Part shown: piece after piece, positions 200 to 63,626 of the stretch
How the letters are laid out: each line of letters starts with the position of its first letter
Numbering within the stretch: the stretch's first letter is position 1
The notes under the pieces: model-generated
What the model saw: the letters and a program-made list of their open reading frames with translations, nothing else
What the model was told of the DNA's origin: nothing
The model's database searches: none
Translations under genes and position numbers: made by a program
IMG/VR virus record: IMGVR_UViG_3300033571_024432
Coordinates: 1-64,000 of that record
Length of the DNA stretch: 64,000 nt
Reading direction: 5' to 3' (one strand)
From: a virus

Positions 200-1201
200 A
201 TGCTATTAAATGAAAGAAAGTTAATTAATACATTAAAAAAATTAATAAAAGAAGCTTTAAAATCAACAGATTTTCAAAATTTTAGAATATCTCCAAAAGA
301 TAAAGGCTCACATCCAATGTATAAAGGTTCTAGAGATGGTAAAGAATATTTTATAAAATTTCCAGGAACAGGTCGTTTTACAAATGATGGACCAATATTA
401 AATGCATTAAATGAATATTTGTTTTTTAAATTATATGAATTATATGCAAATGCAGGACCTGAAAATAAACAATATTTTAGACAACCAAGTGATGTTCAGT
501 TAGTTATGATGAATAATAATCGTGGTGGTGTTAATTTAGGTATTGGCTCTGTAACAGCAACTGTAACTGATGAGTTTGGTGGAGGAGGTGGTTATCAAAG
601 TGTAGGTTACAAGATAAAAGAATATGTAAATGAAATTTGGCATGATGCAGGTTTACATGTAGGTAGTAGATATTATGTTGATTCTTTATTTGCAAACTGG
701 GATCAACCAAAAAATATGATTTATGATATAGAAAAAAATAAAGCTACAAATAAATACAAATTAAAAGGTGTTACAGGTATTGATCCTGGTGGTTCTGGTT
801 TTTATAGGGCTAGAGGTGAGCGTAAAGAACCTTCTCAGTTTGCTGATTCGACTGATGTTACTGAATTGGATCAATTTGGAAGAATGCCTAGTCGTGATAT
901 CAGGGATGGAGCGGGTGGAACTTACTTATATCCTTTCAGAAATGATAGTTTATCTCAACGAATATTTTTTAGCGTATCCAAAGAAGATATTATTAATAAA
1001 ATAAGTGAAGTTTGTAATGAGGTTTCTCAAGATTTAATAGATAATTCTTTAGCCGATTTTGAAGATAATTTATTAGAAAATTTTCAAAACGATTGCGAAA
1101 GATTAAAAGAAATTTTGCCTAGAAGATATGATATAATAGCAAATAGAATCAAAACTGGCAATATACCTAGAACAGAAAAAACAAGTAAAAATCAATTTTA
1201 A
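200..1201 (+). CDS. Atypical kinase-like protein (PI3K/PI4K or HipA-like) with N-terminal leader
   Basis: YFIKF...NEYLFFKLY (Lys/Glu pair), DSLFANWD..N catalytic-loop-like segment, and GIDPGG (IDxG metal-binding-like). Confidence 0.5.
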   Translation: MLLNERKLINTLKKLIKEALKSTDFQNFRISPKDKGSHPMYKGSRDGKEYFIKFPGTGRFTNDGPILNALNEYLFFKLYELYANAGPENKQYFRQPSDVQLVMMNNNRGGVNLGIGSVTATVTDEFGGGGGYQSVGYKIKEYVNEIWHDAGLHVGSRYYVDSLFANWDQPKNMIYDIEKNKATNKYKLKGVTGIDPGGSGFYRARGERKEPSQFADSTDVTELDQFGRMPSRDIRDGAGGTYLYPFRNDSLSQRIFFSVSKEDIINKISEVCNEVSQDLIDNSLADFEDNLLENFQNDCERLKEILPRRYDIIANRIKTGNIPRTEKTSKNQF

Positions 1202-1216
1202 TTTAAAAAATAATAA

Positions 1217-1245
1217 TTGTAGAATCTTATAAAAAATAATATAAT
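1217..1245 (+). promoter_or_regulatory. Sigma70-type promoter TTGTAG-N17-TATAAT
   Basis: Intergenic; one mismatch to the TTGTAA-N17-TATAAT element found exactly four times in the window. Confidence 0.55.
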
Positions 1246-1271
1246 TTTTAAATGAATATAAGGATTTTAAA

Positions 1272-1628
1272 ATGAATATTGAAATATTACAAAAAATTAA
1301 AAATAAAAAAGAAGATGATTTATATTTTATACAAATGGAAGAAGCCCCTTTTTATTTTAAAATTGGTAGAACTAAAAATATTGAAAAAAGATTAAAACAA
1401 TTACAAACAGGTTCAGGAATAAAATTAAGATTGGTTCATTTATTTAAAGGTATGGGTCATAAAGAAAAATATTTACATGAAGAATTATATAGATGGAGAC
1501 AATCTGGAGAATGGTTTGCAAGTAATAGATATTCTATTGGTGCATTACCTACTGAATTTTATGAAAAACTAAATGAAAATTCATTAATACAAGATAATGA
1601 AAACTGGGTTATGGGTATAAAAAAATAA
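1272..1628 (+). CDS. GIY-YIG superfamily protein, T5orf172/MUG113 type
   Basis: LYFIQ...FKIGRTKNIEKRLKQLQTG...EKYLHEEL...GEWF. Confidence 0.8.
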   Translation: MNIEILQKIKNKKEDDLYFIQMEEAPFYFKIGRTKNIEKRLKQLQTGSGIKLRLVHLFKGMGHKEKYLHEELYRWRQSGEWFASNRYSIGALPTEFYEKLNENSLIQDNENWVMGIKK

Positions 1629-1948: not shown

Positions 1949-3226
1949 ATGATTATAACAGAAAAAAAAATTAGAATTTTAATTAAAAAATTATTAGAAA
2001 GTAATTTAACAGATCTAGAAAAAAGATACAAAGAAGATATTATACAAAAAAATTCTGATATTAAAAATAGATATAAACAAAAAAATTTAACTCCAAATAG
2101 TTGGGATTTTTTAGATTATACTGCTAATATTTTGAGAAGTTTAGATAAACCTGATCCTAAAATTTATGGTACAAATCATTTTTCGTTAGGACAAAAAATA
2201 GAGAAAGTAGACGAAATATTAAGAAACGATTTAGGTTTTAAGAAAGTAGGGTTTGGAGCATTTCGTGAAGTATATGCACGTGAAGATGTACCATTTATTG
2301 TTAAATTAGAAGCGGCTTCATTTGGAAATATAACTGGATCAAATTCAAATGAATATGATAAATATTTTAATTACGGTCCTGATAATTATCCTAGAAATGA
2401 TCTTTTTACAAAGATTTATGCATATGATCATAAAGATTCAGCATGGATTATATTTGAAAAAGTTAATGTATTTAGTCCAAATAATAAAAATTTAGTTATA
2501 TATGATATGTTCGCACCTTTTATAAATTTTTTAAGTAAAATACTAAATTTTATAATGAATGATTCTTATTATAGTAAATATTATAATCGTAGTAACTATT
2601 TAGATGCTATTATTAAAAAAGATGAATCATATGCAACAGAAATTTTTCATAATATTATAACATTTATTGAACAGGTATCAACTAATTATAAAAAAACTGG
2701 TGATTTACAAGAAGCATTTATTAATACTTTTATTAATTTGATATTGATATATGCATTTGGCAAACATATATATTCTATAGACAATCCTTTTACTAAGATG
2801 TATCATAAAGAAATAAATGAACAAAATAAATTTGTAAATATATTTAAAAAGAGATTATCAGATGCTAATATTAAGATTAAAATAACACCAGATATTTCAT
2901 ATATTTGTAACTTTTTAAAGAATGATGAAGTTAAAGATCTACATATTGGTAATGTAGGTTATAGAAATGATGCATTAACTACTAATAAAAATAAACCATG
3001 GGAGAGTTTTGTTATATTGGATTTTGGAGAATTTGGTAATTTAGATAAAATGTCTATAGAAATAGATGATAATCAATATAACCAAGAAGAATTAGATCAA
3101 CAAATGTTTAATGATTTAGAAAATTTATCAGATGAAGAGTTGAGTAGAATGGAAAACGAATCTTTTGATTTTGATGAAATGAATTATGATTATTTAGATG
3201 ATTTAGATGATGATAAAAAAGAATAA
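1949..3226 (+). CDS. Protein kinase-like enzyme, paralog 1, with N-terminal leader and acidic tail
   Basis: GFGAFREVY Gly-loop, FIVKLE, WIIFEKV hinge, DLHIGN catalytic loop, ILDFG. Start moved from 1910 to the ATG at 1949 (MIITEKKIRILIKKLLES). Confidence 0.8.
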   Translation: MIITEKKIRILIKKLLESNLTDLEKRYKEDIIQKNSDIKNRYKQKNLTPNSWDFLDYTANILRSLDKPDPKIYGTNHFSLGQKIEKVDEILRNDLGFKKVGFGAFREVYAREDVPFIVKLEAASFGNITGSNSNEYDKYFNYGPDNYPRNDLFTKIYAYDHKDSAWIIFEKVNVFSPNNKNLVIYDMFAPFINFLSKILNFIMNDSYYSKYYNRSNYLDAIIKKDESYATEIFHNIITFIEQVSTNYKKTGDLQEAFINTFINLILIYAFGKHIYSIDNPFTKMYHKEINEQNKFVNIFKKRLSDANIKIKITPDISYICNFLKNDEVKDLHIGNVGYRNDALTTNKNKPWESFVILDFGEFGNLDKMSIEIDDNQYNQEELDQQMFNDLENLSDEELSRMENESFDFDEMNYDYLDDLDDDKKE

Positions 3227-6900: not shown

Positions 6901-7161
6901 ATGAGAATTTCCAAAGACAGATTATCACAAATTATTGCAGAAGAATATTCACGCGCAAAAAGAAATAGACTAAATGAAGGAACACAATATAATCCTATCA
7001 AATTAGACCCACAATCACTTCGTCTTATGATTATGCAAGAAGCAAGAAAAATCGAAGAAGAAAGACTTTTAGAATCACATAGAAATAGAAAAAATGTCAT
7101 CAAACTAGATGCACACTCACTCAGACAAATGATTATGCAAGAAGCAAGAAGATATAATTAA
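6901..7161 (+). CDS. Small repeat protein, putative head core or internal protein
   Basis: RBS AGGAG; repeats IKLDPQSLRLMIMQEAR and IKLDAHSLRQMIMQEAR, separated by LNE and LLES. Confidence 0.7.
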   Translation: MRISKDRLSQIIAEEYSRAKRNRLNEGTQYNPIKLDPQSLRLMIMQEARKIEEERLLESHRNRKNVIKLDAHSLRQMIMQEARRYN

Positions 7162-36124: not shown

Positions 36125-36143
36125 ATTTATATAGGTTTTTTTT

Positions 36144-37181: not shown

Positions 37182-37185
37182 TTTT

Positions 37186-40383: not shown

Positions 40384-40402
40384 ATCTAATACGTGGACAA
40401 AA
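40384..40402 (+). repeat. 19-bp intergenic element, copy 2 (ATCTAATACGTGGACAAAA)
   Basis: Identical to 1649..1667. Confidence 0.85.
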
Positions 40403-40452: not shown

Positions 40453-41640
40453 ATGCTTTATTTAAGAAAATATATTAAATTGTTATTTGAATCATCAGAT
40501 CTATCTGCACTTGAAAATAAATATTCATCTGAAATTATTAAAAAAAAATATCCTCAAAGCCATTATGAATTACATCATATAATAGATGAATTAAAAGACG
40601 TTTCAAAGAAATACGTAGGAAAAGAATGTTTAAACAAGTTAAAAGAAAAGATATTAGAAAATAACTATGAATTATTAGGTGAAGGTAATTATAGATCAGT
40701 TTATTCTAAACCTGAAGTGGATTTTATAATAAAATTATCAAGAAAAACTATAGAAGAAATTGACGATGATGTAGAAAAATATATAGAAGGTCAAAAGCAA
40801 TATAATATCGCTTTTCCAGACAGTCCTAAAAAATATAATGAAACACATTTTGATATAATTAGGAAAGCAAAAAAAGATACAGCTAGAGGAAATAGCATTG
40901 AATATAATAAAAGTTTGGAATATGGTAATAAATTTTTTACAAAGCAATATGCCGTTGATGAAAAAAATAATTATTGGGTTATTTCAGAAAAAGTAAATAA
41001 ACTGTATGGCAAAGATTTCGGAAAGTTTTTTCCATATTTGTATAACTTATATATAAAATTGCTTGTTAGTTATATAAAAATATTTTTTAGAATAGAAGAT
41101 ATAACAGAAGAAAAAGTAATGACTCATATTAATAGTGATTCATTTTTACAATCTTTTTTTCTTGCTGGAAAAGTAGAGTTTATGGATTCTATTTTTTCAG
41201 GATTAGAAAATAAAAGAATTTTTAATTTTAAAGATATTTTAAAACAATTTATATTTATTACTAACCCTTTTTGTGAATCTTCTGGCGTTGAATTAGTAAC
41301 AGCAATTCTTAAAGAAATCTCCGATATTGAACATTTAAAAGAATTAAATAAAGAAATATATAATATTCCTATAAGAAATGGTAATTATTTGTCAGGTATT
41401 GTTGAAGATATTATGTTAGAAATAGGAAATTTATCAAGTAATTTAAGTTATTTATTAAATGATATGTATACTGATTTAAATATGTCTCTTAATGATTTCC
41501 CAGATTTAACTTACTTGATGAATATTGTAATTAATGCAAATTTTAAAGATTTCCATGTAGATAATATTGGATATAGGAATAATGATATGAATAAAGAAAA
41601 GCCATGGAAAAATTTAGTCTTTTTAGATTATGGCAATTAA
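40453..41640 (+). CDS. Protein kinase-like enzyme, paralog 4
   Basis: LGEGNYRSVY, FIIKL, WVISEKV, DFHVDN, FLDYG. Confidence 0.8.
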   Translation: MLYLRKYIKLLFESSDLSALENKYSSEIIKKKYPQSHYELHHIIDELKDVSKKYVGKECLNKLKEKILENNYELLGEGNYRSVYSKPEVDFIIKLSRKTIEEIDDDVEKYIEGQKQYNIAFPDSPKKYNETHFDIIRKAKKDTARGNSIEYNKSLEYGNKFFTKQYAVDEKNNYWVISEKVNKLYGKDFGKFFPYLYNLYIKLLVSYIKIFFRIEDITEEKVMTHINSDSFLQSFFLAGKVEFMDSIFSGLENKRIFNFKDILKQFIFITNPFCESSGVELVTAILKEISDIEHLKELNKEIYNIPIRNGNYLSGIVEDIMLEIGNLSSNLSYLLNDMYTDLNMSLNDFPDLTYLMNIVINANFKDFHVDNIGYRNNDMNKEKPWKNLVFLDYGN

Positions 41641-47972: not shown

Positions 47973-49115
47973 ATGAAATATAATGGTATAGAAATTGATG
48001 TTAATTATGATAATAATTTAAGTGAACAAGCATATTCATTACTTAAAGATTATTATATGTTAGAAGGTGAAACAACACCTCAAATGAGTTATGCTAGGGC
48101 TGCATTAGCTTTTTGTTATAATGATTTTGAATTAGCACAAAGAATTTATGAATATGCAGCTAAAAACTGGTTTATGTTTAGCTCTCCAATTTTGTCAAAC
48201 GCTAAAACGCAAGACGGGAAAAACTCAAAAGGTTTACCTATCAGTTGTTTTTTAAGTTATGTTGATGATTCATTAGAAGGTTTAATGGATCACTCTAATG
48301 AATTAAGATGGATGTCTGTTAAAGGCGGTGGCGTTGGAGGTCATTGGTCAGCAGTTAGAGCAAATAGCGAAATTTCTCCAGGACCTATACCTTTTTTAAA
48401 GACTGTTGATGCAGATATGACAGCTTATAGACAAGGAAAAACTCGTAAAGGCAGTTATGCTGCATATATTGATATTAGTCACCCTGATATTGTTGAATTT
48501 TTAAATATTAGAGTACCTACAGGCGGTGATAGTCATCGTAAATGTTTTAATCTTAATAATGCAATTAATATTACAGATGATTTTATGAATGCAGTATTGG
48601 AAAACCAAGATTGGAAATTAATTGATCCTAAAACAAAAAGCGTTAGAGATACTATTAATGCACGTGAATTATGGCAACGTATTTTAGAAGTCAGATTTAG
48701 AACAGGTGAACCATATCTTAATTTCATTGATGAAGCGAATAGAAAATTACCACAATATCAACAAGAAAAAGATTTAAAGATACATGGCAGCAATTTGTGT
48801 ATAACTGGAGATTCTTTATTAACAGTTATGATTGATAATCAAATCAAAGAAATGAATATTAAAGACGTTATTACAGAGTTTGAAGAAAATAAAGATATTT
48901 ATGTATTATCATATAATATTGATAAGAAAATAAATGAGTTTCAAAAAGTGTTAGAAGGTCAATTAATGTCAGAAAGTGCTGAATTGTTGGAAATCGAGGA
49001 TGATGAAACAGGATTTAAATTAATTTGTACACCTGAGCATTTGATTTTTACAAAAAACAGAGGCTACGTGATGGCTAAAGACCTTACAGAACAAGATGAA
49101 CTGTTAATAAAATAA
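47973..49115 (+). CDS. nrdA: Class Ia RNR alpha subunit, N-fragment plus split intein N-half
   Basis: SSPILSN, PISCF, GGGVG, GSYAAY, TGEPY, HGSNL|CITGD; no ATP-cone evident. Confidence 0.93.
   Translation: MKYNGIEIDVNYDNNLSEQAYSLLKDYYMLEGETTPQMSYARAALAFCYNDFELAQRIYEYAAKNWFMFSSPILSNAKTQDGKNSKGLPISCFLSYVDDSLEGLMDHSNELRWMSVKGGGVGGHWSAVRANSEISPGPIPFLKTVDADMTAYRQGKTRKGSYAAYIDISHPDIVEFLNIRVPTGGDSHRKCFNLNNAINITDDFMNAVLENQDWKLIDPKTKSVRDTINARELWQRILEVRFRTGEPYLNFIDEANRKLPQYQQEKDLKIHGSNLCITGDSLLTVMIDNQIKEMNIKDVITEFEENKDIYVLSYNIDKKINEFQKVLEGQLMSESAELLEIEDDETGFKLICTPEHLIFTKNRGYVMAKDLTEQDELLIK
48798..49112 (+). mobile_element. Split intein, N-half (105 aa)
   Basis: CITGDS block A and CTPEHLIFTKNRGYVMAKDL block B, followed by a stop. 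Confidence 0.92.
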
Positions 49116-49160
49116 TGAAATTCACTCAGCCATAATTCTATATAAAAAAAAGGAAAACAA

Positions 49161-49922
49161 ATGAGTGAAAAATTTATTATTTATATTCATACTTTTAAAT
49201 CAACAAATAAATCATATATTGGTTATACATCATTAACTATTGAAAAAAGATTGCATAAACATATATTAAATTGTAAAGCAGGTTTTGAATCAAAGTTTTA
49301 TAGGGCTATAAAAAAATATGGAGTATCTGATATTGAAAGTCATATTTTACATGAATGTAAAAGTAAAGAAGAAGCAAAAGAAAAAGAAATCGAAATGATA
49401 AAAAATTTTGACACATTTGAAAATGGTCTAAATGAAACAATAGGCGGTGATGGAGGATGGATTGTTCCTGATGCTAAACTTGAAAGATGGAAGAAAACAA
49501 AAAGTGAAAGAATGTTAGGAGAGAGAAATCCGACATATTCAGGTGTAAAGGATATTGAAATTTTAGAAAAAGCATATGATTATTTTCTTAAGACAAATCA
49601 TATGCCGATTCGAAAATGGCAAATGTTTAGTAGCAAAGAATATAATTTTCCTAAGTCATATTCAAAATTTAGATTTAGAGAATATGGCTCAGGTTTAAAA
49701 GGTTTTAAAAATGCGATGAAAGAAATATATTCTCTAAATGATAATGATTTCAAATATGTCATAACCCAAGAACATATATCAAAGTTATCCAATTCAAAAA
49801 ATGGAAAGCATTGGTATATTAATATACATACGCAACAAAGAAGACAGTGTTTTGAGAAAGACATTGATAGAAAAGATTGGTTAACAGCCAATGAGATTAA
49901 AGGATTAAAAAATGGCAATTAA
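49161..49922 (+). CDS. Free-standing GIY-YIG homing endonuclease between the intein halves
   Basis: IIYIHTFKSTNKSYIGYT...RLHKH...AIKKYG...E...I..FDT...GLNETIGG. Confidence 0.88.
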   Translation: MSEKFIIYIHTFKSTNKSYIGYTSLTIEKRLHKHILNCKAGFESKFYRAIKKYGVSDIESHILHECKSKEEAKEKEIEMIKNFDTFENGLNETIGGDGGWIVPDAKLERWKKTKSERMLGERNPTYSGVKDIEILEKAYDYFLKTNHMPIRKWQMFSSKEYNFPKSYSKFRFREYGSGLKGFKNAMKEIYSLNDNDFKYVITQEHISKLSNSKNGKHWYINIHTQQRRQCFEKDIDRKDWLTANEIKGLKNGN

Positions 49923-50013
49923 AATAAAGAAAATTGAAAATACACAAGCTGTATACGATATTAAAGTAGAAAATAATCAAAATTTCTTTGCAAATAATAT
50001 GTTAATTCATAAT
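49912..50013 (+). mobile_element. Split intein, C-half (34 aa)
   Basis: MAIKIKK...VYDIKVENNQNFFANNMLIHN|C. Confidence 0.92.
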
Positions 50014-50973
50014 TGCAACGAGATTCATCTCGCAACTAACAAAGATCGAAGTGCAGTTTGTTGTTTATCATCATTAAACTTAGAAAAATTTGAAGAATGG
50101 AAAAATACAACAATCGTCGAAGATTGCATCACTTTTTTAGACAACGTACTTCAATATTTCATTGATAATGCTACAGATATAGGATTAAAAAAGGCTCGTT
50201 TTAGCGCAATTCAAGAAAGATCTTTAGGATTAGGTGCAATGGGTTTTCATGCTTATTTACAATCAAAAAATATACCATGGGAAAGTGCATTAGCTAAATC
50301 TCAAAATATGAAAATTTTCACATTAATTAAAGAAAGAGCATTTTCACAGACAAAAAAGCTTGCAAAAGAAAGAGGAGAGGCCCCTGATGCTATTGGTTAT
50401 GGCGTCAGAAATGCTCATCTTTTAGCTATAGCCCCTAATGCAAATAGTTCTATTATCGCAGGTACTTCTCCGTCAATAGAACCATATAAAAGTAATGCAT
50501 ATACACATCGTACTCGAGCAGGAGCTCATTTAGTTAAAAATCGTTATTTAGAAAATATACTAAATGAAAAATCTTTAAAAATTGAAGAAGAAAATAGACA
50601 AATTTGGTTAAATGAATTATGGACATCAATTATTACAAATGATGGATCAGTTCAGCATTTAGATTGTTTAAATGAATGGGAAAAAAATGTATTTAAAACA
50701 GCTTTTGAAATTGATCAAAGATGGTTAATTGATCATGCCGCTGATAGACAAGAATTTGTTTGTCAAGGACAAAGCGTAAATCTATTTTTTCCAGCAGGTA
50801 CAGATAAAGCAATTGTAAATGCTGTGCATTTAAGAGCATGGAAAAATAAATTAAAAGGTTTATATTATCTTCGTACAAATTCAGGTGCAAAAGCAGAAAA
50901 TGTCAGTGAAAAAGTCAGAAGTGATAAATTAAAAGACTTTAAAGATACTGATTGTTTAAGTTGTCAAGGATAA
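49912..50973 (+). CDS. nrdA: Split intein C-half plus class Ia RNR alpha subunit C-fragment
   Basis: HN|CNEI, CCLSSLN, RSLGLG.MG, AIAPNANSSII, CQGQSVN, KGLYYLR, terminal CLSCQG. Confidence 0.93.
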   Translation: MAIKIKKIENTQAVYDIKVENNQNFFANNMLIHNCNEIHLATNKDRSAVCCLSSLNLEKFEEWKNTTIVEDCITFLDNVLQYFIDNATDIGLKKARFSAIQERSLGLGAMGFHAYLQSKNIPWESALAKSQNMKIFTLIKERAFSQTKKLAKERGEAPDAIGYGVRNAHLLAIAPNANSSIIAGTSPSIEPYKSNAYTHRTRAGAHLVKNRYLENILNEKSLKIEEENRQIWLNELWTSIITNDGSVQHLDCLNEWEKNVFKTAFEIDQRWLIDHAADRQEFVCQGQSVNLFFPAGTDKAIVNAVHLRAWKNKLKGLYYLRTNSGAKAENVSEKVRSDKLKDFKDTDCLSCQG

Positions 50974-52777: not shown

Positions 52778-54418
52778 ATGATATTAAATGAAAAAAAATT
52801 AAATGAAATAATAAAAAAAGTTTTAAAGGAATCTAGATTTATTTTTGGTGATTATAAAGACGATCAAGGAAATTCTACAGATTTAAAAGCTGTTAATATA
52901 TCAAAAAAGTTGGGGAAACAATCAAACCCGCATGAAAGATGGACAAATCAGGATGAAAGAGAACAAATAATTGATGAAGTATATTCATTGGCAGGTCCAG
53001 ATGTATTTATTTCTTTTGTTGATCCATTTGAAAAAGGTGCAGATGGTTATTTAGCATCGCCTGCATTTAGTTTAAACCCGAATGCTACTTTTAATACACC
53101 TCATGGTATATATGCTTATCCTTTTGATAAAAACGATGCACAAAGATTTATAGAGACAGGTTCACCTACACCTTCTCCATTTGCTACAGGACGTAAATAT
53201 TTTCATTTAATGAGAATTGATTTAGCAAATCCAAATATAATTGTTTTTAATAAAGATGGAACATGTAATAGAAATATTAGTAATCAAGAATACGAGGCAA
53301 ATATCGACGAAATGATTAGAATGCATTATTTGTTTTTTAAAGATGAAATAATGAATTGTGTAATGAAATATGATCGTGAATATTGGCCACGTGGTGTTAA
53401 TAAGCAAACAGATAAAAATAAAAATGTTAAAATTGTTATTGATGAATATTATTTTAAAGATTCTAAAAAAGAAGAATTACAGAAATTTTTGAATAGTTTA
53501 AGATCTTCAACTAGAAGCATGTATATTGATAATAATTATTATAGACTTTATAAAGCAGCATACCATTTATCAAAAAATAAATATATGGGTGATTCATCAT
53601 CAGATGTAAATATTGATGCCAACTTAAATGTTAAATTTTCAAAAACAAGAGAGGTAAATTCTGAATTTTTTACATTGTTATTGAATAGGATTGGTATAAA
53701 GTGTGTTATCGATAAAGGAACAGGGGCAATACACCCAAATGAGCCAAGTCAAGTACATATTTTAACATTAGCAGATGATTCTTCTTATTATGAATATCTA
53801 GGTACATATCATAATAATTTAACAGCATCAGATGAATTGTTTTATTATTTCTTAAAAAATAATTTATCTGTTAATAAAAAATTTATTGCAATTGATAAAG
53901 ATAAAAAAATATTTGTTTGTGATATTACAAATGCTGAGGCAAAATTGGTAACATCAGTAGAACAATATATGGTTGAACACCCTGAGGATTTTGGACATCA
54001 TAAAATTAATAATGATGTTGATGTTGATGTTGATGTTGAAAATGAATATTCTAATGATCCTGATGTTATTCCATTAATAGATGAATGGGATGATGAAGAT
54101 TATGAAGATTATATTGAAACTTTCGGAATAAAGCCTACAAGAATGACAAAAAATCTAGAAAAAAAGTTCAAAAAAGAAAATTATCAAGAATTATATACAT
54201 TTTTTACTACAGAATTAGGATATCCACCAATTTTTATACCAGTCGATTGGAAAGAAATATCAAGCAAATTAAAAGTACCTTTATTGGTTTCTTTTGAGAA
54301 AAAAGTTAAAATATCTGCAATTTCAGGGTTAACATTTTTATTGAAAAAAATAGCTAAAAAATATTTTGGATATGAAAAAGTTTCGAACTCTTCTGATTCA
54401 AATGATGATGATTTTTAA
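52778..54418 (+). CDS. Leader-bearing protein with putative ART-like domain, paralog A
   Basis: FISF...SLNPNATFNTPHGIYAYP...GTGAIHPNEPSQ. Confidence 0.6.
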   Translation: MILNEKKLNEIIKKVLKESRFIFGDYKDDQGNSTDLKAVNISKKLGKQSNPHERWTNQDEREQIIDEVYSLAGPDVFISFVDPFEKGADGYLASPAFSLNPNATFNTPHGIYAYPFDKNDAQRFIETGSPTPSPFATGRKYFHLMRIDLANPNIIVFNKDGTCNRNISNQEYEANIDEMIRMHYLFFKDEIMNCVMKYDREYWPRGVNKQTDKNKNVKIVIDEYYFKDSKKEELQKFLNSLRSSTRSMYIDNNYYRLYKAAYHLSKNKYMGDSSSDVNIDANLNVKFSKTREVNSEFFTLLLNRIGIKCVIDKGTGAIHPNEPSQVHILTLADDSSYYEYLGTYHNNLTASDELFYYFLKNNLSVNKKFIAIDKDKKIFVCDITNAEAKLVTSVEQYMVEHPEDFGHHKINNDVDVDVDVENEYSNDPDVIPLIDEWDDEDYEDYIETFGIKPTRMTKNLEKKFKKENYQELYTFFTTELGYPPIFIPVDWKEISSKLKVPLLVSFEKKVKISAISGLTFLLKKIAKKYFGYEKVSNSSDSNDDDF

Positions 54419-54461: not shown

Positions 54462-56294
54462 ATGATATTAACTAGAAACAAATTAAATAAAATAATAAAA
54501 AATAATTTAAAAGAAACCAGATTTATTTTCGGTGATTATGAAGAAGAAGATGTTGATTCTAATGATAAAAATTTAAAAAAATCAACAGGATTATCAGCAA
54601 AAAATATGTCTAAAAATATAGGTTCAAAATTAAATTTCATGAAATTTAATTCTAATGAAGAATCTAAAGAATTTATAAAAAATATCGCAGGACCTGATAC
54701 TTTTATTTCTTTTATAGACCCTTATGAAAAAGAAGACGCTGATTCTGATGATTCTGAATCTGCGATGAAGGTTCCGTCATTTAGTTTAAATCCAAATGCT
54801 ACTTTTAATACACCTCATGGTATATATGCTTATCCTTTTGATACTAAACACTGTGAAAAATTTATTATAACAGGACAACCTACAAATGCTGAATTTGCTA
54901 TTGCAAGACCTTATTTTCATTTAATTAGAATTGATTTAAATCACCCAAATGTAATTAGTTTTAATGCAGATGGTAGTAGTAATAAAAGTATAAATAGAAA
55001 TAAATATTTAAAAGAACTTAATGAACTTATAAGAGTTCATTGTAAATATTATAATAAAGATGAAAATGAAAAAGAAAATATTTCAGAATCAATTAATGAA
55101 AGGCTTAAAGAATCAATACATTTTCAATTAAGAGATCTAGGGATGAGTAATGATGAAAAATTTGACAAATTAAAAGAAAAATTTTTAAATAATCATTATT
55201 ATAAATTATATAAAGCAGCTTTTTATTTATGCTTTGAAAATGTTTTAAGAAAGTCATATGGATCTGAAGAAAAAAATTCAGAACTATATGCATTATTATT
55301 AAATGTAATTGGTATGAAATGTATTGTTGATAATAATACAGGTACAATACACGAAAATGAACCAACGCAAATGCACATTTTGACATTTGGCGAAAATGAT
55401 TCTTTTTATGAATACGTAGGTACATTTAAAAATAATATAAAAGCAAATGAAAAAGAATTATCAGATTATATTTCAAATTTAAAGTATACAGATATTGTAA
55501 AATTTTATTCAAAATTAGACGGTAGCAAATGTTTTGATAAAAATCTAATTGATACTATTTTTAATTTATATAAAAATGATGATGATATAATGTCATTGTT
55601 TGTAAAATTAATTTATGAAAAATTAATGACATTTTGTTTCGATACAGAAGAAAGAATAGATATTATTAATAAAATAATATCACAAGACTTTGTTAATTGG
55701 TTAGAAACTTCTGTAGTAAGTGCTAGTGGTATGAAAAATATAAAAAAATGGTTAGGTATAAACGAAGAAAATATATCAAACAAGTATACTTCTTTAAAAG
55801 ACTGGATATCATTATTTAAAGAAAAAAGTAAAAGTCAAATTACATTTTTATTACACGAACATGTATTAAACAAATTTGATGGTCTAGAAATATTAATAGC
55901 AGCAAGAAATATAGATTTAAAAACATTTTGTTTATTATATGAAATAATAATGTATGAACATGAATTTAATAAAAAAATAACCGAACAAGATAATGCAACA
56001 AAAACTTTCCTGCTTAATACATTAAGTAATATTGATATAGATATATTTAAAAATATAATTAAAGCAACAGATATCGATTTATTTAAAGAACAAAATACTA
56101 TAGAAATGTTTATAAATAAAAACATTAATGATCTAAAAAGAATTGATATATTTTTTAATTATATTTCAAATTCTTTACCTCATATGGAAGATAAAATTAA
56201 GCAATATATAAAAAATAAAGTTAAAAATAAAAATGAATCATTAAAAAAATTAAAAGCGTTAATTAGATATGAATTAAAAAATATATTACATTAA
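54462..56294 (+). CDS. Leader-bearing protein with putative ART-like domain, paralog B
   Basis: FISF...SLNPNATFNTPHGIYAYP...NTGTIHENEPTQ; a near-identical 60-bp DNA block is shared with paralog A. Confidence 0.6.
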   Translation: MILTRNKLNKIIKNNLKETRFIFGDYEEEDVDSNDKNLKKSTGLSAKNMSKNIGSKLNFMKFNSNEESKEFIKNIAGPDTFISFIDPYEKEDADSDDSESAMKVPSFSLNPNATFNTPHGIYAYPFDTKHCEKFIITGQPTNAEFAIARPYFHLIRIDLNHPNVISFNADGSSNKSINRNKYLKELNELIRVHCKYYNKDENEKENISESINERLKESIHFQLRDLGMSNDEKFDKLKEKFLNNHYYKLYKAAFYLCFENVLRKSYGSEEKNSELYALLLNVIGMKCIVDNNTGTIHENEPTQMHILTFGENDSFYEYVGTFKNNIKANEKELSDYISNLKYTDIVKFYSKLDGSKCFDKNLIDTIFNLYKNDDDIMSLFVKLIYEKLMTFCFDTEERIDIINKIISQDFVNWLETSVVSASGMKNIKKWLGINEENISNKYTSLKDWISLFKEKSKSQITFLLHEHVLNKFDGLEILIAARNIDLKTFCLLYEIIMYEHEFNKKITEQDNATKTFLLNTLSNIDIDIFKNIIKATDIDLFKEQNTIEMFINKNINDLKRIDIFFNYISNSLPHMEDKIKQYIKNKVKNKNESLKKLKALIRYELKNILH

Positions 56295-57760
56295 TTATTC
56301 TTTGATTCATTAAATTTTTCTAAGTAATATTGATATATTTCGTTTGTAATATTTTCAGTTGATTCTTTTTCTAAATCAATATTTCTTTCATTAACTATTT
56401 TTTTAAAATTTTTTAATAAAGAAATAGAAGGTTTAGACTTTTTACTATTGTCTAGTTTTAAAAATTTCCTAAAATCATACATTTTATTATTTGAGTTTGA
56501 TATATTTTTTAAAAATGTTATATCATTATTAATTTTTACTATTTTTTTTCTATCATTCATTAGTGGTAATTTATTCTTTCTACAAAAACTTTCCAAGTTT
56601 TGTAGAAAATATATAAAAACATCAATAATTTGATCTGTAATTTCAGTAGGATCTGTTCCACCATGAGCTTTTTTTAATTTTTCAATAAATGATTGATAAT
56701 TATTAATAATATTATCAACTTCTGGAATATCGCCAGATTGATAATCAAAAACGTATAATTTTCTACTTTCAATCCAATTTGAATTTGGTACAATTAAATG
56801 TTTATTAAAATATGCATCTGCAATTGACCAAGCGATAAAAGATCCTATAAATTTTAATACAGGAATGAAAAGCACCTCATTTAATTTATTTGTTTTTTTA
56901 TAAGATTTGACATATGATTCGGTATATGGAATAAAACCCTTTACTTTATTTGGAAGCACTTCCTCGGCAACGTCAATAGGTTTAAAAGCATCTTTAACTT
57001 TATTTTTAATAAAAGATCCTATTTTTTTAGTTTGATTTTTAGCTACACCTGGTGATACTAGACTTGTTACGGCTGTAAATCCATCTCCTTCATCACCTTC
57101 AAAATAATCTATCCAATCTTCATCGCCTGTATAATAAGATTTTTGTTTAGAAATATATAAACTACTTCCTTCTTCATTAATAACATCAGAAATTGCATGA
57201 CGTATATATTCAGATTCTGAATTATCTAACATTATACATATTTTCTTTTTATTTCCATTTAATAATATTTTAAATTTAGATGTTAGAATTAATTCATTAT
57301 ATTCTTTTTGTTTATTATTATCAATTTTATCGCCATTTGATATAGATTTAAAAAATTTAGTATATTTTTGATAATTATCTATAGGTATTTGTTTCCATTC
57401 AGTAAAATATTTTTTTAAATTTTCATCATCTTGAGACAATTTTTCAAAACCAGATAACTTAGCAATACTTTTATTAATTTCTTTTTTAATATTTGTGTTA
57501 AAAAAAGGTAAATTATCTGTAAGAGATTTTTTTTGATTATATAATTTTTGTACAGAACTCATAATTTGATTATTTGTAATAATCTTATAACATTTTTCAT
57601 AAAATAAATTTAGTACGTCGTCTCCTATAGTTGAATCATCTTCTTGTCCTTCTTTCTCGTCATATGAATCTTCTAAATTATTTTGATTAAGCTCTTTTAA
57701 AATTTTTTCTATAATTATTTTTTTTATTTGACTTTCATTAATAATTTTTATATCACTCAT
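56291..57760 (-). CDS. Hypothetical protein with leader motif
   Basis: 489-aa ORF; MSDIKIINESQIKKIIIEKILKE; short hydrophobic segment LFIPVLKFIGSFIAWSIA. Confidence 0.75.
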   Translation of the reverse strand: MSDIKIINESQIKKIIIEKILKELNQNNLEDSYDEKEGQEDDSTIGDDVLNLFYEKCYKIITNNQIMSSVQKLYNQKKSLTDNLPFFNTNIKKEINKSIAKLSGFEKLSQDDENLKKYFTEWKQIPIDNYQKYTKFFKSISNGDKIDNNKQKEYNELILTSKFKILLNGNKKKICIMLDNSESEYIRHAISDVINEEGSSLYISKQKSYYTGDEDWIDYFEGDEGDGFTAVTSLVSPGVAKNQTKKIGSFIKNKVKDAFKPIDVAEEVLPNKVKGFIPYTESYVKSYKKTNKLNEVLFIPVLKFIGSFIAWSIADAYFNKHLIVPNSNWIESRKLYVFDYQSGDIPEVDNIINNYQSFIEKLKKAHGGTDPTEITDQIIDVFIYFLQNLESFCRKNKLPLMNDRKKIVKINNDITFLKNISNSNNKMYDFRKFLKLDNSKKSKPSISLLKNFKKIVNERNIDLEKESTENITNEIYQYYLEKFNESKNN

Positions 57761-57875: not shown

Positions 57876-59282
57876 TTATTTTGATTGATTTAACTGTATA
57901 GTCTTTGTGTTTGGTTTATTTGAATTTGTTTGAAGTTGATTATTAGATGTTTTTTTAGCAGCTCTGTCTTTGAACATTTTTTCTAATGAAATATTGGCAG
58001 CGTCTTCTAACTCTGTTATTTTGCTTAATGCATCACTTACATTAATATTTGATTTAAGTACTTTATTTAAACCTTTTTCTTTTGCTTCTTGTAGGGATTT
58101 GTCTGTCCATTCTTTATCACTGTCAGCAATGCAATATAGGTATCTAAATAATGTTCTTGATATGACAATATATTGTGATACTTTAAACATTTGATTGCCA
58201 TAAAAAGCAGCTAAATATTTTCCTAAATTATTAACATTTTTTAACTTATCTATAGTGGGTTGAAGTTTATCACTATTTTTATCGTTATTATACAAACCCA
58301 CAAGTATTTCGTTTTGCGGATTTGTTAAATAATCAGTAATTTTTGAAATTAAATCTTTATTTTCTGTAATTGGACCAAATTTTTTAATTCCTTTTTTAGC
58401 CAAAATTTGTTCAAATTTTTTAGTAGATTTAGAAGTGTCTTGTAAAGCATTCATTAATTGTGGATTTAACAAAATTTTTGCCAATTCAAAATAACCGCCA
58501 TTAAGTTGAGGGATTCTAAATAATACTGGCAATTCATTACTTTCAACTGTTACGTTATTTTGATTTTGATTTTGTGTTTGAGGATTATTATTAGCAATAT
58601 AATCTTTATTATTATTAACATATTCATCATCTAAATATTTGAATACAGCACTTACGTCAATTAATTTTTTGTAAAGGTCAGATTCAGTAAATATAATTAT
58701 TGCCTTAGCATCAAAAAAGTTTTTTTTCTCTGCACCGAATAACGTGACGGAATCATACTCAGTATAATAATTAACAAGATCAGAATCATATGTATATCCT
58801 TCAAATTGAGCAAATTTCTTTTGAAGTTCATCATATATATTATTATTTGACTTTTTAATCATTATTATTTTGTGCCTACCACCGTCAAAATGACTTGATT
58901 GAAGTTCGCTTGTTTTTAATATTAAAGTAGGATCAGCATCAAAAAGATTGCTTTTTGCATCTCCTTTAATTATATTATCACGATAAGATAAATTTTTGTT
59001 TGCAATATCATCATCCACTTTTAAGTAATTTTCAATTACTCCTGCAATTTCTTTATTCAAATAAACTGATTTGTCTGTATTACTTGAATTTAAGAATTCG
59101 TTTAATTGATTGTCTGTGCTATCTTGTTGTTGATCAGCGACTGAAGTCGCTGTGTCATCTTGCTCTTCCCCAACAACGTCATCAACTTCTTCCTCTTCTT
59201 TTAATAATTTTTTTTTATAATTTTCTATAAGCTTTGTTTTTATAATTTTTCTTATAACTGATTCGTTAATTCTTTTTAACAT
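57876..59282 (-). CDS. Hypothetical protein with leader motif
   Basis: 468-aa ORF; MLKRINESVIRKIIKTKLIE...LLKEE. Confidence 0.75.
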   Translation of the reverse strand: MLKRINESVIRKIIKTKLIENYKKKLLKEEEEVDDVVGEEQDDTATSVADQQQDSTDNQLNEFLNSSNTDKSVYLNKEIAGVIENYLKVDDDIANKNLSYRDNIIKGDAKSNLFDADPTLILKTSELQSSHFDGGRHKIIMIKKSNNNIYDELQKKFAQFEGYTYDSDLVNYYTEYDSVTLFGAEKKNFFDAKAIIIFTESDLYKKLIDVSAVFKYLDDEYVNNNKDYIANNNPQTQNQNQNNVTVESNELPVLFRIPQLNGGYFELAKILLNPQLMNALQDTSKSTKKFEQILAKKGIKKFGPITENKDLISKITDYLTNPQNEILVGLYNNDKNSDKLQPTIDKLKNVNNLGKYLAAFYGNQMFKVSQYIVISRTLFRYLYCIADSDKEWTDKSLQEAKEKGLNKVLKSNINVSDALSKITELEDAANISLEKMFKDRAAKKTSNNQLQTNSNKPNTKTIQLNQSK

Positions 59283-59386: not shown

Positions 59387-59836
59387 ATGATATATGTTAG
59401 AGTTGAAGATTTGTATTCTTTGATAAGAGAGAGTATATATGAAAATATGAATGTTGATCAGGAGTATTTGACTGAGACTGTATCTATGTGGTTGGATGAT
59501 GAGACTGATCATAAGATTGATGATACAGCTGAAAAGCATAATATGCCTCCTGGATCTTTAGCATCAATTTATCGAAAAGCATTGGCTAGATGGTTTAAAG
59601 TAAATAGATATGGAGATGGTAAAGATCAGCATTTACATGCGTTGAAAGATGTGCAAAATTTTATATATAATAAAGATGAGTTTAGATCAAAACATCCTGT
59701 TGAGTGGAATCGTGTGAAAAAGTTTAGGAAGAAGAAGATATCTGATGATTTTGCACACAATATTGAGATGCGAAAGAAGCGATTGCAGAGATTGAAGATG
59801 AAAAAAATGCGTCAGCGTATGTTAGATAATTCATAG
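59387..59836 (+). CDS. Hypothetical protein with leader motif (possibly DUF5824-like)
   Basis: LYSLIRESIYE; AEK.....SL..IYRK....W...H....VQNFI pattern, recognised from memory only. Confidence 0.5.
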   Translation: MIYVRVEDLYSLIRESIYENMNVDQEYLTETVSMWLDDETDHKIDDTAEKHNMPPGSLASIYRKALARWFKVNRYGDGKDQHLHALKDVQNFIYNKDEFRSKHPVEWNRVKKFRKKKISDDFAHNIEMRKKRLQRLKMKKMRQRMLDNS

Positions 59837-59916: not shown

Positions 59917-60561
59917 ATGAATATGAATTGTATTTATAATGTTTCTCCTAATTTAAAAGTTGTTGAATTGAGACAAGATCCGTTGATGATAAATATTACA
60001 ACGATTGATGAAGAAACAGCAGCTGAATTTAGAGATGCCATGTCCATGGCACATAATTCAGGACAAGAAGTTATTCCTATTATTATTGATAGTTATGGTG
60101 GTAATGTTCATAGTTTGTTATCTATGGTTGATTGTATTGTTGAATCTAAGCGAAAAGTTGCTACGATTGTAATAGGTAAAGCATTAGGTTGTGCTTCTAT
60201 TTTGGCTGCTATGGGAAACAAAGGTTTACGTTTTGTATCTCCTAATGCATCATTAATGTTAAATAATGTAAGTAAAGAAAGTTGGGGTAAAACTGGTGAT
60301 TTTAAACCTGATAGTAGAGAAGTTGAAAGATTATATAAACTTGTATGTAAAATGCTTGACAAAAATTGTGATAAAGAAGAAGGATATTTTGAATCACTTA
60401 TCAAAGATAAAGGTGGTTGTGATTGGTATTTTGAAGCTTCTGATGCTGTTGATTATAACTTGATTGATCATATTAAACTGCCATGGATGGAAGTAAATAT
60501 ACAACCTGAATATCAATTTGATAATATTAAATATAAGGAGAATGTCAATGAAATTGATTAG
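59917..60561 (+). CDS. ClpP-like protein lacking the catalytic Ser and His
   Basis: IIIDSYGG; GKALGCAS where ClpP has Ser; MLNN where ClpP has MxH. Confidence 0.8.
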   Translation: MNMNCIYNVSPNLKVVELRQDPLMINITTIDEETAAEFRDAMSMAHNSGQEVIPIIIDSYGGNVHSLLSMVDCIVESKRKVATIVIGKALGCASILAAMGNKGLRFVSPNASLMLNNVSKESWGKTGDFKPDSREVERLYKLVCKMLDKNCDKEEGYFESLIKDKGGCDWYFEASDAVDYNLIDHIKLPWMEVNIQPEYQFDNIKYKENVNEID

Positions 60562-61156
60562 AAATATTTCTAAAAAGATTAAAGAATTAGAGATGAGATT
60601 GGCGCCTGTTATAATTTGTGTTAATGATTTTACAGAAGAGAATGCAAATCAATTTATTAAAGAAATTGGATTAGCACATAACACTGGACAGCCTATTATT
60701 CCTGTTGTAATTGATAGTTATGGCGGTGATGTATATTCATTAGGTCGTATGATTGATGCTATTAAAAATGCAACTTTACCTGTTGCGACTATAGTTGAAG
60801 GAAAAGCAATGAGTTGTGGAGCTATTCTGATGACATATGGAACCAAAGGATATCGTTATTGTAATCAAGATGCAACAGTTATGATGCATGATATTAGTGC
60901 TTCATCTTATGGTAAAATTGAAGAAATACGTAGTTCATTACAAGAAGTTGATAGATTACAAAGTAAAATTTTAGCAGAAGTTGATAGAAATTGTTGTCAG
61001 GAAAAAGGTTATTTTAATAAAAATATTCATGATAAAGGTCGAGCAGATTGGTTTATTAATCCTGATGAAGCTCTTGCGATAGGTATGTGTGATAAATTAG
61101 GAAATCCTAATTTAAATATTGATTTTAAAGTTGACATTTCGTTTAAATTTGATTGA
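60548..61156 (+). CDS. clpP: ClpP-family serine protease (triad intact)
   Basis: VIDSYGG, GKAMSCGA (Ser), MMHD (His), ADWF..PDEAL..G..D. Start ATG 60548 follows AAGGAG. Confidence 0.85.
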   Translation: MKLIRNISKKIKELEMRLAPVIICVNDFTEENANQFIKEIGLAHNTGQPIIPVVIDSYGGDVYSLGRMIDAIKNATLPVATIVEGKAMSCGAILMTYGTKGYRYCNQDATVMMHDISASSYGKIEEIRSSLQEVDRLQSKILAEVDRNCCQEKGYFNKNIHDKGRADWFINPDEALAIGMCDKLGNPNLNIDFKVDISFKFD

Positions 61157-61168
61157 AAGAAAAAAAAT

Positions 61169-61864
61169 ATGGTAGAATATAATAACAAAATTTATTTATA
61201 TGAAGATAATATAGGATATGTTGAGTATATTCAACATGTTGGTAATGATTTAACAATCGTTAATGCTGCGCGTGTATCGACAGGAAAAGAATCTGTAAAT
61301 TTTGAAGAGAAAGATAGGAAATTATTAGATTTTCTGATCAAATCAGGACATACATCAACTCTTGAACATAATATCTTAACTGTTAGATGTAAAGTTCCAA
61401 TGTTTATTTCTAAACAACATATGAGGCATAGAACACAATCATATAATGAAATAAGTAGAAGATATACAGCAGAAAAAATTGAATTTTATATCCCTGATTC
61501 ATTAAGACCGCAGGATAAAAAGAATCGTCAAGCAACATTGATGGAAGAATATAATCCTTTATTAGAAACAACAGGCTTTGATGCTATTAATAGTTTAAGA
61601 TTACATTGTGAAAATTCAAAAAAAGTATATGATGAAATGATTCAAAAAGGTGTAGGAAGAGAAATGGCTAGAATGTATTTACCTCAGAATTTATATACTA
61701 CATATTGGGCTACAGCTAATTTAAATAATTGGATGGATTTTGTATCTAAAAGATCTCATATAGATGCGCAATATGAGATTAGACAATTGGCTGAAGGTGT
61801 TGAAAAAATTATTAGAGATTTATGGCCTTTTGCATATGAATCATATTTAAATAATAAAAAATAA
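61169..61864 (+). CDS. thyX: Canonical flavin-dependent thymidylate synthase
   Basis: IVNAARVS, GHTSTLEH, RHRTQSYNEISRRY, AQYEIR. Confidence 0.95.
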   Translation: MVEYNNKIYLYEDNIGYVEYIQHVGNDLTIVNAARVSTGKESVNFEEKDRKLLDFLIKSGHTSTLEHNILTVRCKVPMFISKQHMRHRTQSYNEISRRYTAEKIEFYIPDSLRPQDKKNRQATLMEEYNPLLETTGFDAINSLRLHCENSKKVYDEMIQKGVGREMARMYLPQNLYTTYWATANLNNWMDFVSKRSHIDAQYEIRQLAEGVEKIIRDLWPFAYESYLNNKK

Positions 61865-61904
61865 TAATATTGAATAAATAGATATTAATTAAAAGGAATA
61901 AACA

Positions 61905-63626
61905 GTGTTAATATCTGATGAAAGTTTATTAAGAAAATATATTAATAATTTAATATTTGAAGGTTTTACTCCACAAAATCCTTCTATTTCTTTTGTTGAT
62001 AGTAGTAAATTTATAAATCCTATTTATAATAAAATATGTAAGGAAATTTTACCATTAGTTTTAGGTGAATTAAATAAATTTTATCCTGATTTAAGTCAAT
62101 TTATATTTAAATCATTTAATAATAAATATACAGTACATAAAGATAAATTATTAAATGCATTATCTGATCCTGCTTTTATTACATCAATATTGTCTAAACT
62201 TCCTGATTTAAAAAATTTTATCGATATTAATGAAATGTTGACTCCAGATAATGTTCGATTTATAAAATTAATTAATAATAATTTAGGTGGATTTAAAATA
62301 TTAAATTCTGATACTCCTTTTAATGTTCAAATATTTTTTTCAAATAATGATGCTGGTTTATGGTCAAATAATATAACAAATATAAATATCCCAAAAGACG
62401 CATATGCAGGGTTTTTTCAATTGGTCGGATATAAACAAACAGGTATAGAATGTTATATAACTTTTAATTTATTTCATTTTATATATCACTCTTTTTTTAT
62501 ATATTATGTTGGTGTTACAAGAAAAAATGATTCATGGGAAAATGTATTTAATAAATATCTGAGTGATTCTATTAAAATTCAATTATTAAAAGTAATAAGA
62601 CATGAATTAGAGCACGCATTTCAGACAACAAATAATCTTTTAAATAAGATGAAAACTCGTCTTATTAATTATATAAATCCTATTTTAAAGCAGACAAGAA
62701 ATAAAGAAAGAAAAATAAGGGCTAAAGATAGGTTAGCAGGTAAAAATATTGCCATACCAATTAAATCAAGTATTGTATCTTTTTTAAAAGATAAAAATAC
62801 TGATTATCTTCATTTTAAAAAATTGACGCTAATATTATTAGAAACATTACGTGAAAGTCCTTCAATATCTATACAATATAGTGTTAATAAAAAAAGAAAA
62901 GGATATGGCTTTACTAAAACAAATCCTAATATTTTAAAATATTCAAATCAAAAATATGTAAATCAAAATAATAATATTGCTAGTGATCGCGAATCTAAAT
63001 TATATCGATATGATCCAGTTGAAATAATTCCGCAATTAAATGATCTTGTAATGTCATATGTATTTGCTGCTGCTGGATTTTTTGCAAATGTAGAATCGGC
63101 AATAGATTGGTTTTTTGAATTTATTGAATCTGATTTATTTAAAGAAAAATATGCTTTTGAAAAAGATTCAAAAACAAAAACTGATATATTAGAGGCATTT
63201 TTAAAGAATTCTAATTGTTTAAAAAATAAAGAGTTTGTAATTGATGATGTATTAATTAATAATAAATTACCATATAAATCTTTTAATTTTACAGAAGATT
63301 TTAATGAAATAATTAATGAATTTATTAATAATTTTAATTATATAACAATTGGTCAATCAGACTTATTATTTGATTTATTATCTGTTAAATCAAATGAACG
63401 TAATATTTATTTTGATGAAAGCACACCTACAGTAAATATTAATAGATCTGAATCTGTTTTAACAGATACTGATATCTTAAACGATCCTCAAACAAAGTCA
63501 GTAAATATTACTGATTTAAATAATTATAGAGATAAGCTTGGAAAAGAAATTAAAAATTTGTTTATTAAAAAAATGAAAAAATTGTGGCAACAAAAAAATA
63601 TGTTGAATATAAATTTAGATATTTAA
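61905..63626 (+). CDS. Leader-bearing protein with a zincin HExxH motif
   Basis: GTG start after AAGGA; SLLRKYINNLIFEG leader; VIRHELEHAFQ; downstream YRYDPVE. Confidence 0.6.
   Translation: MLISDESLLRKYINNLIFEGFTPQNPSISFVDSSKFINPIYNKICKEILPLVLGELNKFYPDLSQFIFKSFNNKYTVHKDKLLNALSDPAFITSILSKLPDLKNFIDINEMLTPDNVRFIKLINNNLGGFKILNSDTPFNVQIFFSNNDAGLWSNNITNINIPKDAYAGFFQLVGYKQTGIECYITFNLFHFIYHSFFIYYVGVTRKNDSWENVFNKYLSDSIKIQLLKVIRHELEHAFQTTNNLLNKMKTRLINYINPILKQTRNKERKIRAKDRLAGKNIAIPIKSSIVSFLKDKNTDYLHFKKLTLILLETLRESPSISIQYSVNKKRKGYGFTKTNPNILKYSNQKYVNQNNNIASDRESKLYRYDPVEIIPQLNDLVMSYVFAAAGFFANVESAIDWFFEFIESDLFKEKYAFEKDSKTKTDILEAFLKNSNCLKNKEFVIDDVLINNKLPYKSFNFTEDFNEIINEFINNFNYITIGQSDLLFDLLSVKSNERNIYFDESTPTVNINRSESVLTDTDILNDPQTKSVNITDLNNYRDKLGKEIKNLFIKKMKKLWQQKNMLNINLDI

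Follow-up and report, generated by a model that had tools for sequence, protein, structure and literature searches.

The DNA analyzed here, referred to as the window, comprises the first 64 kb of the 116,707-bp IMG/VR virus record IMGVR_UViG_3300033571_024432, a linear record (the contig; G000 in comparisons with relatives) whose completeness is put by CheckV at 44% and whose GC content is 23 to 30%. According to our analysis, about 33 of the approximately 125 proteins encoded on the contig, accounting for about 31% of its length, begin with the same kind of leader, a short N-terminal segment that ends in Leu/Ile-x-Glu and resembles the capsid-targeting sequence (CTS) of phage T4. The original prediction made from this DNA had reported such a leader on about 14 proteins; all 14 N-termini that it quoted are present at the starts it gave, and the set is real but too small, since about 19 leader proteins lie beyond those quoted.

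The contig carries Pfam matches to gp32, to a gp15-like sheath stabilizer, and to a T4 baseplate protein, together with three tail-sheath paralogues and a weak, below-cut-off match to a gp19-like tube protein. The gp32, gp15, baseplate, and sheath genes therefore mark the contig as a fragment of a T4-like jumbo myophage, one without a close cultured relative; the nearest GenBank matches for sheath and capsid are an uncultured 484-kb phage, Microcystis phage Mel-JY01, the Flavobacterium "immuto" phages, and RM378. Other genes on the contig encode RecA/UvsX, DnaB, DnaE, ribonucleotide reductase (RNR), ThyX, two ClpP proteins, GroEL, and a sigma factor. The relatives used for comparison were G001 (80.7 kb, GC content of 24.5%), G002 (324 kb, GC content of 47%), G003, and G004.

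Sequence pattern of the leader

The leaders were aligned on the Glu residue preceding the predicted cleavage point (P1), which was picked by eye and is conserved by construction; it lies at residues 11 to 23 in 31 of the 33 leader proteins and at residues 31 and 34 in the other two. P3 is Leu or Ile in 31 of 33 leaders and one of Leu, Ile, Met, and Val in all of them, and in none is it Ser, Ala, or Gly. P4 is Leu, Ile, or Phe in 24 of 33 and P7 is Leu, Ile, Tyr, or Phe in 25 of 33, while Lys, Arg, or Asn occupies P9 in 22 of 33 and P11 is mostly Leu, Ile, or Phe. On the other side of the predicted cleavage point, P1' is Ser in 13 leaders, Glu in 5, Gly in 3, Ala in 2, and Thr in 2. The Ser residues at P1' are encoded by TCT, TCA, AGT, and AGC, that is, by both the TCN and the AGY families, and selection therefore acts on the protein. 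The periodicity of the leader is that of a predicted basic amphipathic helix of 12 to 23 residues, with P11, P8/P7, and P4/P3 on the hydrophobic face and a basic polar face. In AlphaFold (AF2) models of two families, the leader forms a separate N-terminal helix (residues 2 to 20 and 2 to 14) ahead of the folded domain. As had been claimed, the leader is absent from the replication, nucleotide, and tail proteins, and this holds for every one of them that was identified by its domains or examined at its N-terminus.

At the far end of the contig (115895 to 116491; L003:11895-12491), a 40-amino-acid (aa) open reading frame (ORF) has a perfect leader ending in I-Y-E before Ala and lies out of frame with the next ORF, of 182 aa. 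A run of eight A residues at their junction points to either a homopolymer error or a frameshift.

Leader proteins in the window

When the leaders were trimmed and the remaining sequences were compared by BLAST and phmmer, the proteins fell into two paralogue families of four members each and about 25 singletons, i.e., about 27 groups unrelated in sequence. Family A comprises the proteins starting at 1949, 38358, 39521, and 40453, while family B comprises those at 52778 and 54462 and, farther along the contig, at 71486 and 75532. The leader proteins had been described as unrelated, which is accurate for most of the 14 quoted but not for the four members of family A or for the 52778 and 54462 members of family B.

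The first gene of the set, at positions 200 to 1201 (+ strand), encodes a 333-aa ORFan without a Pfam or PHROG match, whose leader covers residues 1 to 18 (nucleotides [nt] 200 to 253) and ends in I-K-E before Ala. The first family A gene (1949 to 3226, +) encodes a kinase-like protein with a leader at residues 1 to 17 (nt 1949 to 1999) that ends in L-L-E before Ser, and its homologues P0141 and P0143 have the same start. The other three family A genes, likewise kinase-like, form a row: 38358 to 39488 (+; leader at nt 38358 to 38399), where homologue P0140 starts at the equivalent Met, 39521 to 40357 (+; nt 39521 to 39559), and 40453 to 41640 (+; nt 40453 to 40491), the member modeled by AF2, with its helix at residues 2 to 14. 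All three leaders end in L-F-E before Ser. Just upstream of them, a 65-aa protein (37842 to 38039, +) has a leader at nt 37842 to 37892 ending in L-A-E before Ser. For the proteins at 1949, 37842, and 38358, an ATG within a longer ORF is where the leader starts, a position confirmed by homologues.

The 86-aa product of 6901 to 7161 (+) is a candidate prohead-core protein whose leader (nt 6901 to 6942), ending in I-A-E before Glu, matches the pattern moderately. Copies of a leader-like helix are found at both of its ends and in its middle, three in all, as expected of a multiply cleaved core protein, and a similar protein of 91 aa sits beside the protease in the head module of G001. The 94-aa ORF at 26782 to 27066 (+), between tail genes, was among the 14 quoted; its weak leader-like N-terminus (L-T-E before Gln) does not show the basic and hydrophobic periodicity seen in the other leaders. 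To judge from this sequence, it is probably not a member of the set, and the resemblance may be due to chance.

Two genes of family B follow each other at 52778 to 54418 (+), whose product is predicted to have an ADP-ribosyltransferase (ART)-PolyVal-like fold, and at 54462 to 56294 (+), with leaders at nt 52778 to 52831 (L-K-E before Ser) and nt 54462 to 54515 (L-K-E before Thr). The C-terminus of the latter protein, as well as that of its homologues P0004, P0008, and P0016, carries a leader-like amphipathic helix, which recalls the C-terminal trimming of T4 Alt. Next come two genes on the minus strand encoding ORFans without Pfam or PHROG matches, of 489 aa (56291 to 57760; leader at nt 57692 to 57760, L-K-E before Leu) and 468 aa (57876 to 59282; nt 59223 to 59282, L-I-E before Asn), in both of which the leader is followed by an acidic linker. 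The 149-aa protein at 59387 to 59836 (+) has a leader at nt 59387 to 59431 that ends in I-R-E before Ser and matches moderately; relative L012 encodes two diverged copies of it, with leaders. Finally, 61905 to 63626 (+) encodes a 573-aa protein from a GTG start, with a leader at nt 61905 to 61961 ending in I-F-E before Gly and no Pfam or PHROG match. The peptidase that had been proposed here corresponds to an HExxH motif, present at residue 233, and to that motif only.

Two tandem ClpP paralogues (PF00574, 37% identical to each other) are encoded inside this cluster of leader genes, at 59917 to 61156, next to ThyX.

Enrichment and conservation of the leader

The T4 rule [LI].E[SGAT], which was set from existing knowledge rather than fitted to this genome, was scored in the first 30 residues of each protein. 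It matched 28 of the 125 N-termini of the contig, compared with 68 of 1048 internal 30-residue windows (6.5%; p=1.1e-7). The original prediction had proposed a comparison with shuffled N-termini, and the motif is indeed commoner at the real ones (22% versus 6.5%). A position-specific scoring matrix (PSSM) built only from the 14 leaders of the window, and tested on the unseen second half of the contig, matched 9 of 64 N-termini and 6 of 321 internal windows (p=1.3e-4). The T4 rule was similarly enriched in G001 (11 of 52 N-termini versus 6.6%; p=9e-4) and in eight related metagenome loci (20 of 46 N-termini versus 23 of 507 internal windows, or 4.5%; p=8.5e-13). As a positive control, the same expression recovered gp67, gp68, gp21, gp22, gp23, gp24, IPI, IPII, and IPIII from 64 kb of T4. 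In G002 it was enriched only weakly (9.2% versus 7.3%), and only a few leaders, in Arg-rich form, occur in this relative; since the enrichment in G002 is not significant, the expansion of the leader is specific to the AT-rich sublineage.

The leader is also kept in distant homologues. All 15 homologues of family B, which come from other metagenomes and are 31 to 49% identical, retain it with an invariant P1 Glu. A profile search with family A returned 191 homologues, and a strict pattern, which misses a few more, finds a leader start in 60 of the best 150; more distant homologues start straight at the kinase-like domain or carry this domain internally. The claim of a portable tag is thus borne out, as the leader is carried by about 27 unrelated groups and the family A domain occurs both with and without it among the 150 homologues. 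In close relatives, genes flanking the leader genes are 76 to 95% identical to those of the contig, whereas the leader genes themselves are just 26 to 55% identical, with the leader kept throughout, and the number of leader-gene copies varies. The family at 74209 to 75471, for example, is present in one copy here and as three or four tandem paralogues (706 to 831 aa) at L016:377-9975 and L017:207-7373, with nearly identical leaders that end in L-L-E followed by Ala or Val.

These data bear on whether the leaders are an artifact, in which the composition of a 26% GC genome, rich in Lys, Ile, Leu, Asn, and Glu, together with paralogy produces look-alike N-termini. The proteome does contain 9 to 10% each of Lys, Asn, Ile, and Leu, 8 of the 33 leader proteins belong to the two paralogue families, and P1 was chosen by eye. 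Even so, we consider this explanation very improbable. The same proteins give only 6.5% when internal windows or shuffled N-termini are scored, the out-of-sample PSSM test was positive, and the leader persists in homologues of 31 to 49% identity, in Arg-rich form in a relative with 47% GC, and with both codon families for Ser at P1'. In its pure form, composition and paralogy and nothing else, the explanation was rejected by the internal-window, shuffled, and leader-trimmed relatedness controls.

Predicted folds of the tagged proteins

None of the 25 leader proteins tested has a Pfam domain above the cut-off, compared with 8 of 15 nonleader proteins scanned, and no informative match was found for the 24 scanned against PHROGs or, in the ESM Atlas, for leader proteins of 828 and 1269 aa.

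The AF2 model of family A (the 40453 to 41640 protein; predicted local distance difference test [pLDDT] score of 81) is predicted to have a bilobal protein-kinase-like fold. In the VIA re-alignment, the first 50 entries listed are all protein-kinase-like, as are nearly all Foldseek matches; among them are ABC1/ADCK, PRPK, Rio, APH(2''), and eukaryote-type kinases, with middling scores (Z of 5 to 7.8; Foldseek E of at least 0.03 and probability up to 0.96). The motifs GxGxxRxVY (Gly loop), beta-3 Lys, DxHxxNxG, and xLDxG show little or no variation across 69 sequences. Assignment to a curated kinase family failed: the four proteins have no Pfam match, PF18762 matches nothing on the contig, one of the 69 homologues matches Kinase-PolyVal (E=0.005), and PDB profile matches to SteC and p38 are weak. 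Where five kinase-like domains had been claimed, only four were verified; the 200 to 1201 protein, considered as a fifth, was rejected, as it does not match the family A hidden Markov model.

The family B model (pLDDT of 80) matches in BFVD a viral PolyVal ADP-ribosyltransferase (E=8e-5, probability of 1.0, TMt of 0.52) and two other ART-PolyVal-like proteins, and in the PDB, weakly, ParT (Z of 5.2), MbcT (Z of 4.8), and a cyanophage pre-ejectosome chain. By similarity of predicted structures, its fold is putatively ART-PolyVal-like. The same similarity is what speaks for the two ART-like domains reported earlier, and the ART Pfam model PF18760 has no match on the contig.

The nature of the tagged proteins is also relevant to a reading in which the leader is a propeptide for assembly of the prohead core, and the proteins that bear it are mainly structural components of the inner head or scaffold, comparable to the inner body of phiKZ-type phages, rather than injected effectors. 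Many of them are small or have acidic low-complexity stretches, like T4 gp67 and gp68, the 6901 protein, with its three copies of the helix, looks like a core protein that is cut at several points, and giant phages package about 50 head proteins (PMC7411985). Nevertheless, two four-member families have predicted folds of the effector type, kinase-like and ART-PolyVal-like, and fast divergence with changing copy number points to conflict with the host and not to structure, so that we regard a mainly structural role as unlikely.

Head-maturation genes in relatives

G001, which alone among IMG/VR records has family B in common with the contig, contains a terminase-like gene and genes for a T4 portal (PF07230, E=1e-79), a gp21-family protease (PF03420, E=1e-28), and a gp23 capsid protein (PF07068, E=1e-77), and its capsid gene is immediately followed by two leader-bearing family B genes. 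The G001 protease shares 34% of its residues with T4 gp21 and has preserved the conserved His and Ser blocks (GELxHP and SSRGxG). The N-termini of small proteins of the head module end in Leu/Ile/Val-x-Glu, and that of the capsid protein ends in L-x-E before Gly in both G001 and G002. A protease is also encoded by G002, G003, and G004, three relatives identified by their sheath proteins, of 187 to 324 kb. The proteins of G000 and G001 are colinear with adjacent parts of G002, each at a median identity of 36%, the head module of G001 corresponding to 34 to 46 kb of G002 and the neck gene at 9017 in the window to 64 kb; the head module of the phage studied here is therefore expected just left of position 1 of the window.

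No family B relative was found among GenBank phages, and single-protein scans of IMG/VR with the 52778 and 200 to 1201 proteins gave no match. A 219-kb contig carries identical copies of the 52778 and 40453 proteins; it is not among the 120 best protease matches listed, a list crowded by thousands of near-identical proteases.

Comparison with known packaging systems

In T4 (NC_000866), the N-terminal propeptides end in I-A-E before Ala in IPII, IPIII, and gp22, in L-R-E before Ser in gp24, and in L-I-E before Thr in gp21. For packaging, the first 10 residues of IPIII are enough, with residues 4 and 7 governing targeting and residues 8 and 10 governing processing (PMC9026906). Fusion to the CTS also brings about the packaging and delivery of foreign proteins, and Alt is trimmed at its C-terminus as well (PMC9026906, PMC5694885). 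The best-conserved positions of the leader, P7, P4, P3, and P1, coincide with IPIII residues 4, 7, 8, and 10. Like the CTS of IPI, IPII, IPIII, Alt, and gp24, the leader is an N-terminal segment of the same order of length that ends in Leu/Ile-x-Glu, mostly before a small residue, has hydrophobic or aromatic residues at P7 and P4, and is borne by otherwise unrelated, fast-evolving proteins including an ADP-ribosyltransferase, here a putative one, in a lineage with a gp21-family protease. The turnover of its cargo is comparable to that of the nonconserved IP genes of T4. It differs from the CTS, which is 10 to 20 aa in T4, in being longer (mostly 13 to 23 aa) and a regular basic amphipathic helix, and the number of tagged proteins is about 33 on 117 kb, compared with about ten in all of T4, with putative cargo of up to 1269 aa that includes kinase-like enzymes.

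In phiKZ, 201phi2-1, and SPN3US, a diverged gp21 homologue processes proteins after Glu, and the propeptides are thought to be CTS-like (PMC5694885). These giant phages resemble the present one as jumbo myophages with many head-internal and ejected proteins; their sites, however, are Ser/Ala/Gly-x-Glu, at the end of mostly long propeptides (more than 100 aa) without a shared leader, whereas here P3 is Leu or Ile, the T4 situation, and one short leader recurs from protein to protein. A third comparison is with the polyvalent proteins of phages and conjugative elements, whose effector domains are predicted to be injected with DNA (Iyer et al. 2017, PMC5512222). Family B matches a PolyVal ADP-ribosyltransferase in predicted structure, and one family A homologue is weakly similar to Kinase-PolyVal. 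In polyvalent proteins, many domains are joined in a single giant chain, while here each domain has a separate gene and its own tag.

A basic amphipathic helix is also a shape able to bind membranes, and two ClpP paralogues among the leader genes (59917 to 61156) and a GroEL-like gene on the contig offer other conceivable partners. The helix could direct the proteins to, or let them interact with, a target other than the capsid, the candidates being a membrane, a phage-made compartment, and the phage's own ClpP pair or GroEL, which would recognize the tag to time turnover or aid folding. We deem this improbable, since it leaves unexplained the near-invariant Leu/Ile-x-Glu ending, the match to four functional positions of the T4 CTS, and the occurrence of the same ending on capsid and head-module proteins of relatives, with family B beside the capsid gene.

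A capsid-targeting propeptide as the probable function

Several independent lines agree with one interpretation, which we regard as the best at hand: the leader is probably a T4-type capsid-targeting propeptide, by which the proteins are loaded into the head and which is then cut off. During prohead assembly, the helix would dock the tagged protein onto the scaffolding core. The gp21-family (Peptidase_S77) prohead protease would then cut after the P1 Glu, with Leu or Ile at P3, and remove the leader, and the mature proteins would remain in the head, from which at least the enzymes among them would be expected to exit with the DNA at infection. Core binding, cleavage, packaging, and ejection of the leader proteins are all predicted in this way from sequence. 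Delivery before any phage transcription, as envisaged in the original prediction, is conceivable and purely conjectural. On this reading, we are dealing with the known T4 CTS/gp21 system in strongly expanded form and not with a system of a new kind.

Several observations weigh against this interpretation. Protease (Peptidase_S77), capsid, and portal genes are all missing from the 44%-complete contig, so that the link to a T4-like prohead protease made earlier holds for the lineage, which has a gp21-family protease, and not for this contig; we infer that the phage possesses all three genes from its relatives and from colinearity. About one third of the leaders have Glu, Asn, Leu, His, or Ile at P1', and the leader genes are scattered among replication genes. 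The profile scan that had been proposed, enriched in the second half of the contig, gave no enrichment when the leader PSSM was moved to T4 and to G002; since the T4 CTS is not scored highly by it, the leader exceeds the T4 tag in length and differs from it in part. A candidate late-promoter motif, TATAAATA, lies upstream of 6 of 33 leader genes and 2 of 92 others, a difference that is not significant among genes with an intergenic gap of at least 40 nt (4 of 22 versus 2 of 43; p=0.095). To our knowledge, 33 tagged proteins on 44% of a genome exceed what any characterized T4-like phage packages.

A broader proposal, about which we are rather more doubtful than confident, is that an AT-rich, uncultured T4-like jumbo lineage has expanded T4 capsid targeting about ten-fold, with about a quarter of the genes and 31% of the contig given over to separately tagged, packaged, and injected proteins, kinase-like and ADP-ribosyltransferase-like ones included, as an "unbundled" counterpart of the polyvalent-protein strategy. 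If true, the T4 CTS mechanism, so far seen with a handful of proteins, would be scalable to a large, fast-evolving arsenal and would be tied to effector domains otherwise fused in polyvalent proteins. The leader would be a natural general-purpose packaging tag, and a 15-residue sequence rule would identify packaged proteins across an uncultured phage lineage and give a role to dozens of ORFans that databases do not recognize. For phage engineering, the leader is a possible alternative packaging tag.

Other features of the contig

The RNR alpha gene of the window looks fractured at 47973 to 50973, where downstream of an N-terminal ORF come a GIY-YIG-like ORF (49161 to 49922) and then an ORF that opens with an intein C-terminal-like block ending in HN before Cys. 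The RecA/UvsX-like gene is split at 42698 to 45007: 42698 to 43435 (PF00154) and part of 43571 to 45007 match one single ORF of G002, and the second of these ORFs has a Cys-rich N-terminal extension. A family A DNA polymerase is seemingly spread across several consecutive ORFs at 34673 to 37809, with a DNA_pol_A match in 36144 to 37181; this ORF and 37186 to 37809 match two adjacent, separate ORFs of G002. Finally, three exact copies of the 17-nt sequence CTAATACGTGGACAAAA are present on the + strand, at 1651 to 1667 and 40386 to 40402 of the window and at 111206 to 111222 of the contig, each time just upstream of a gene start.

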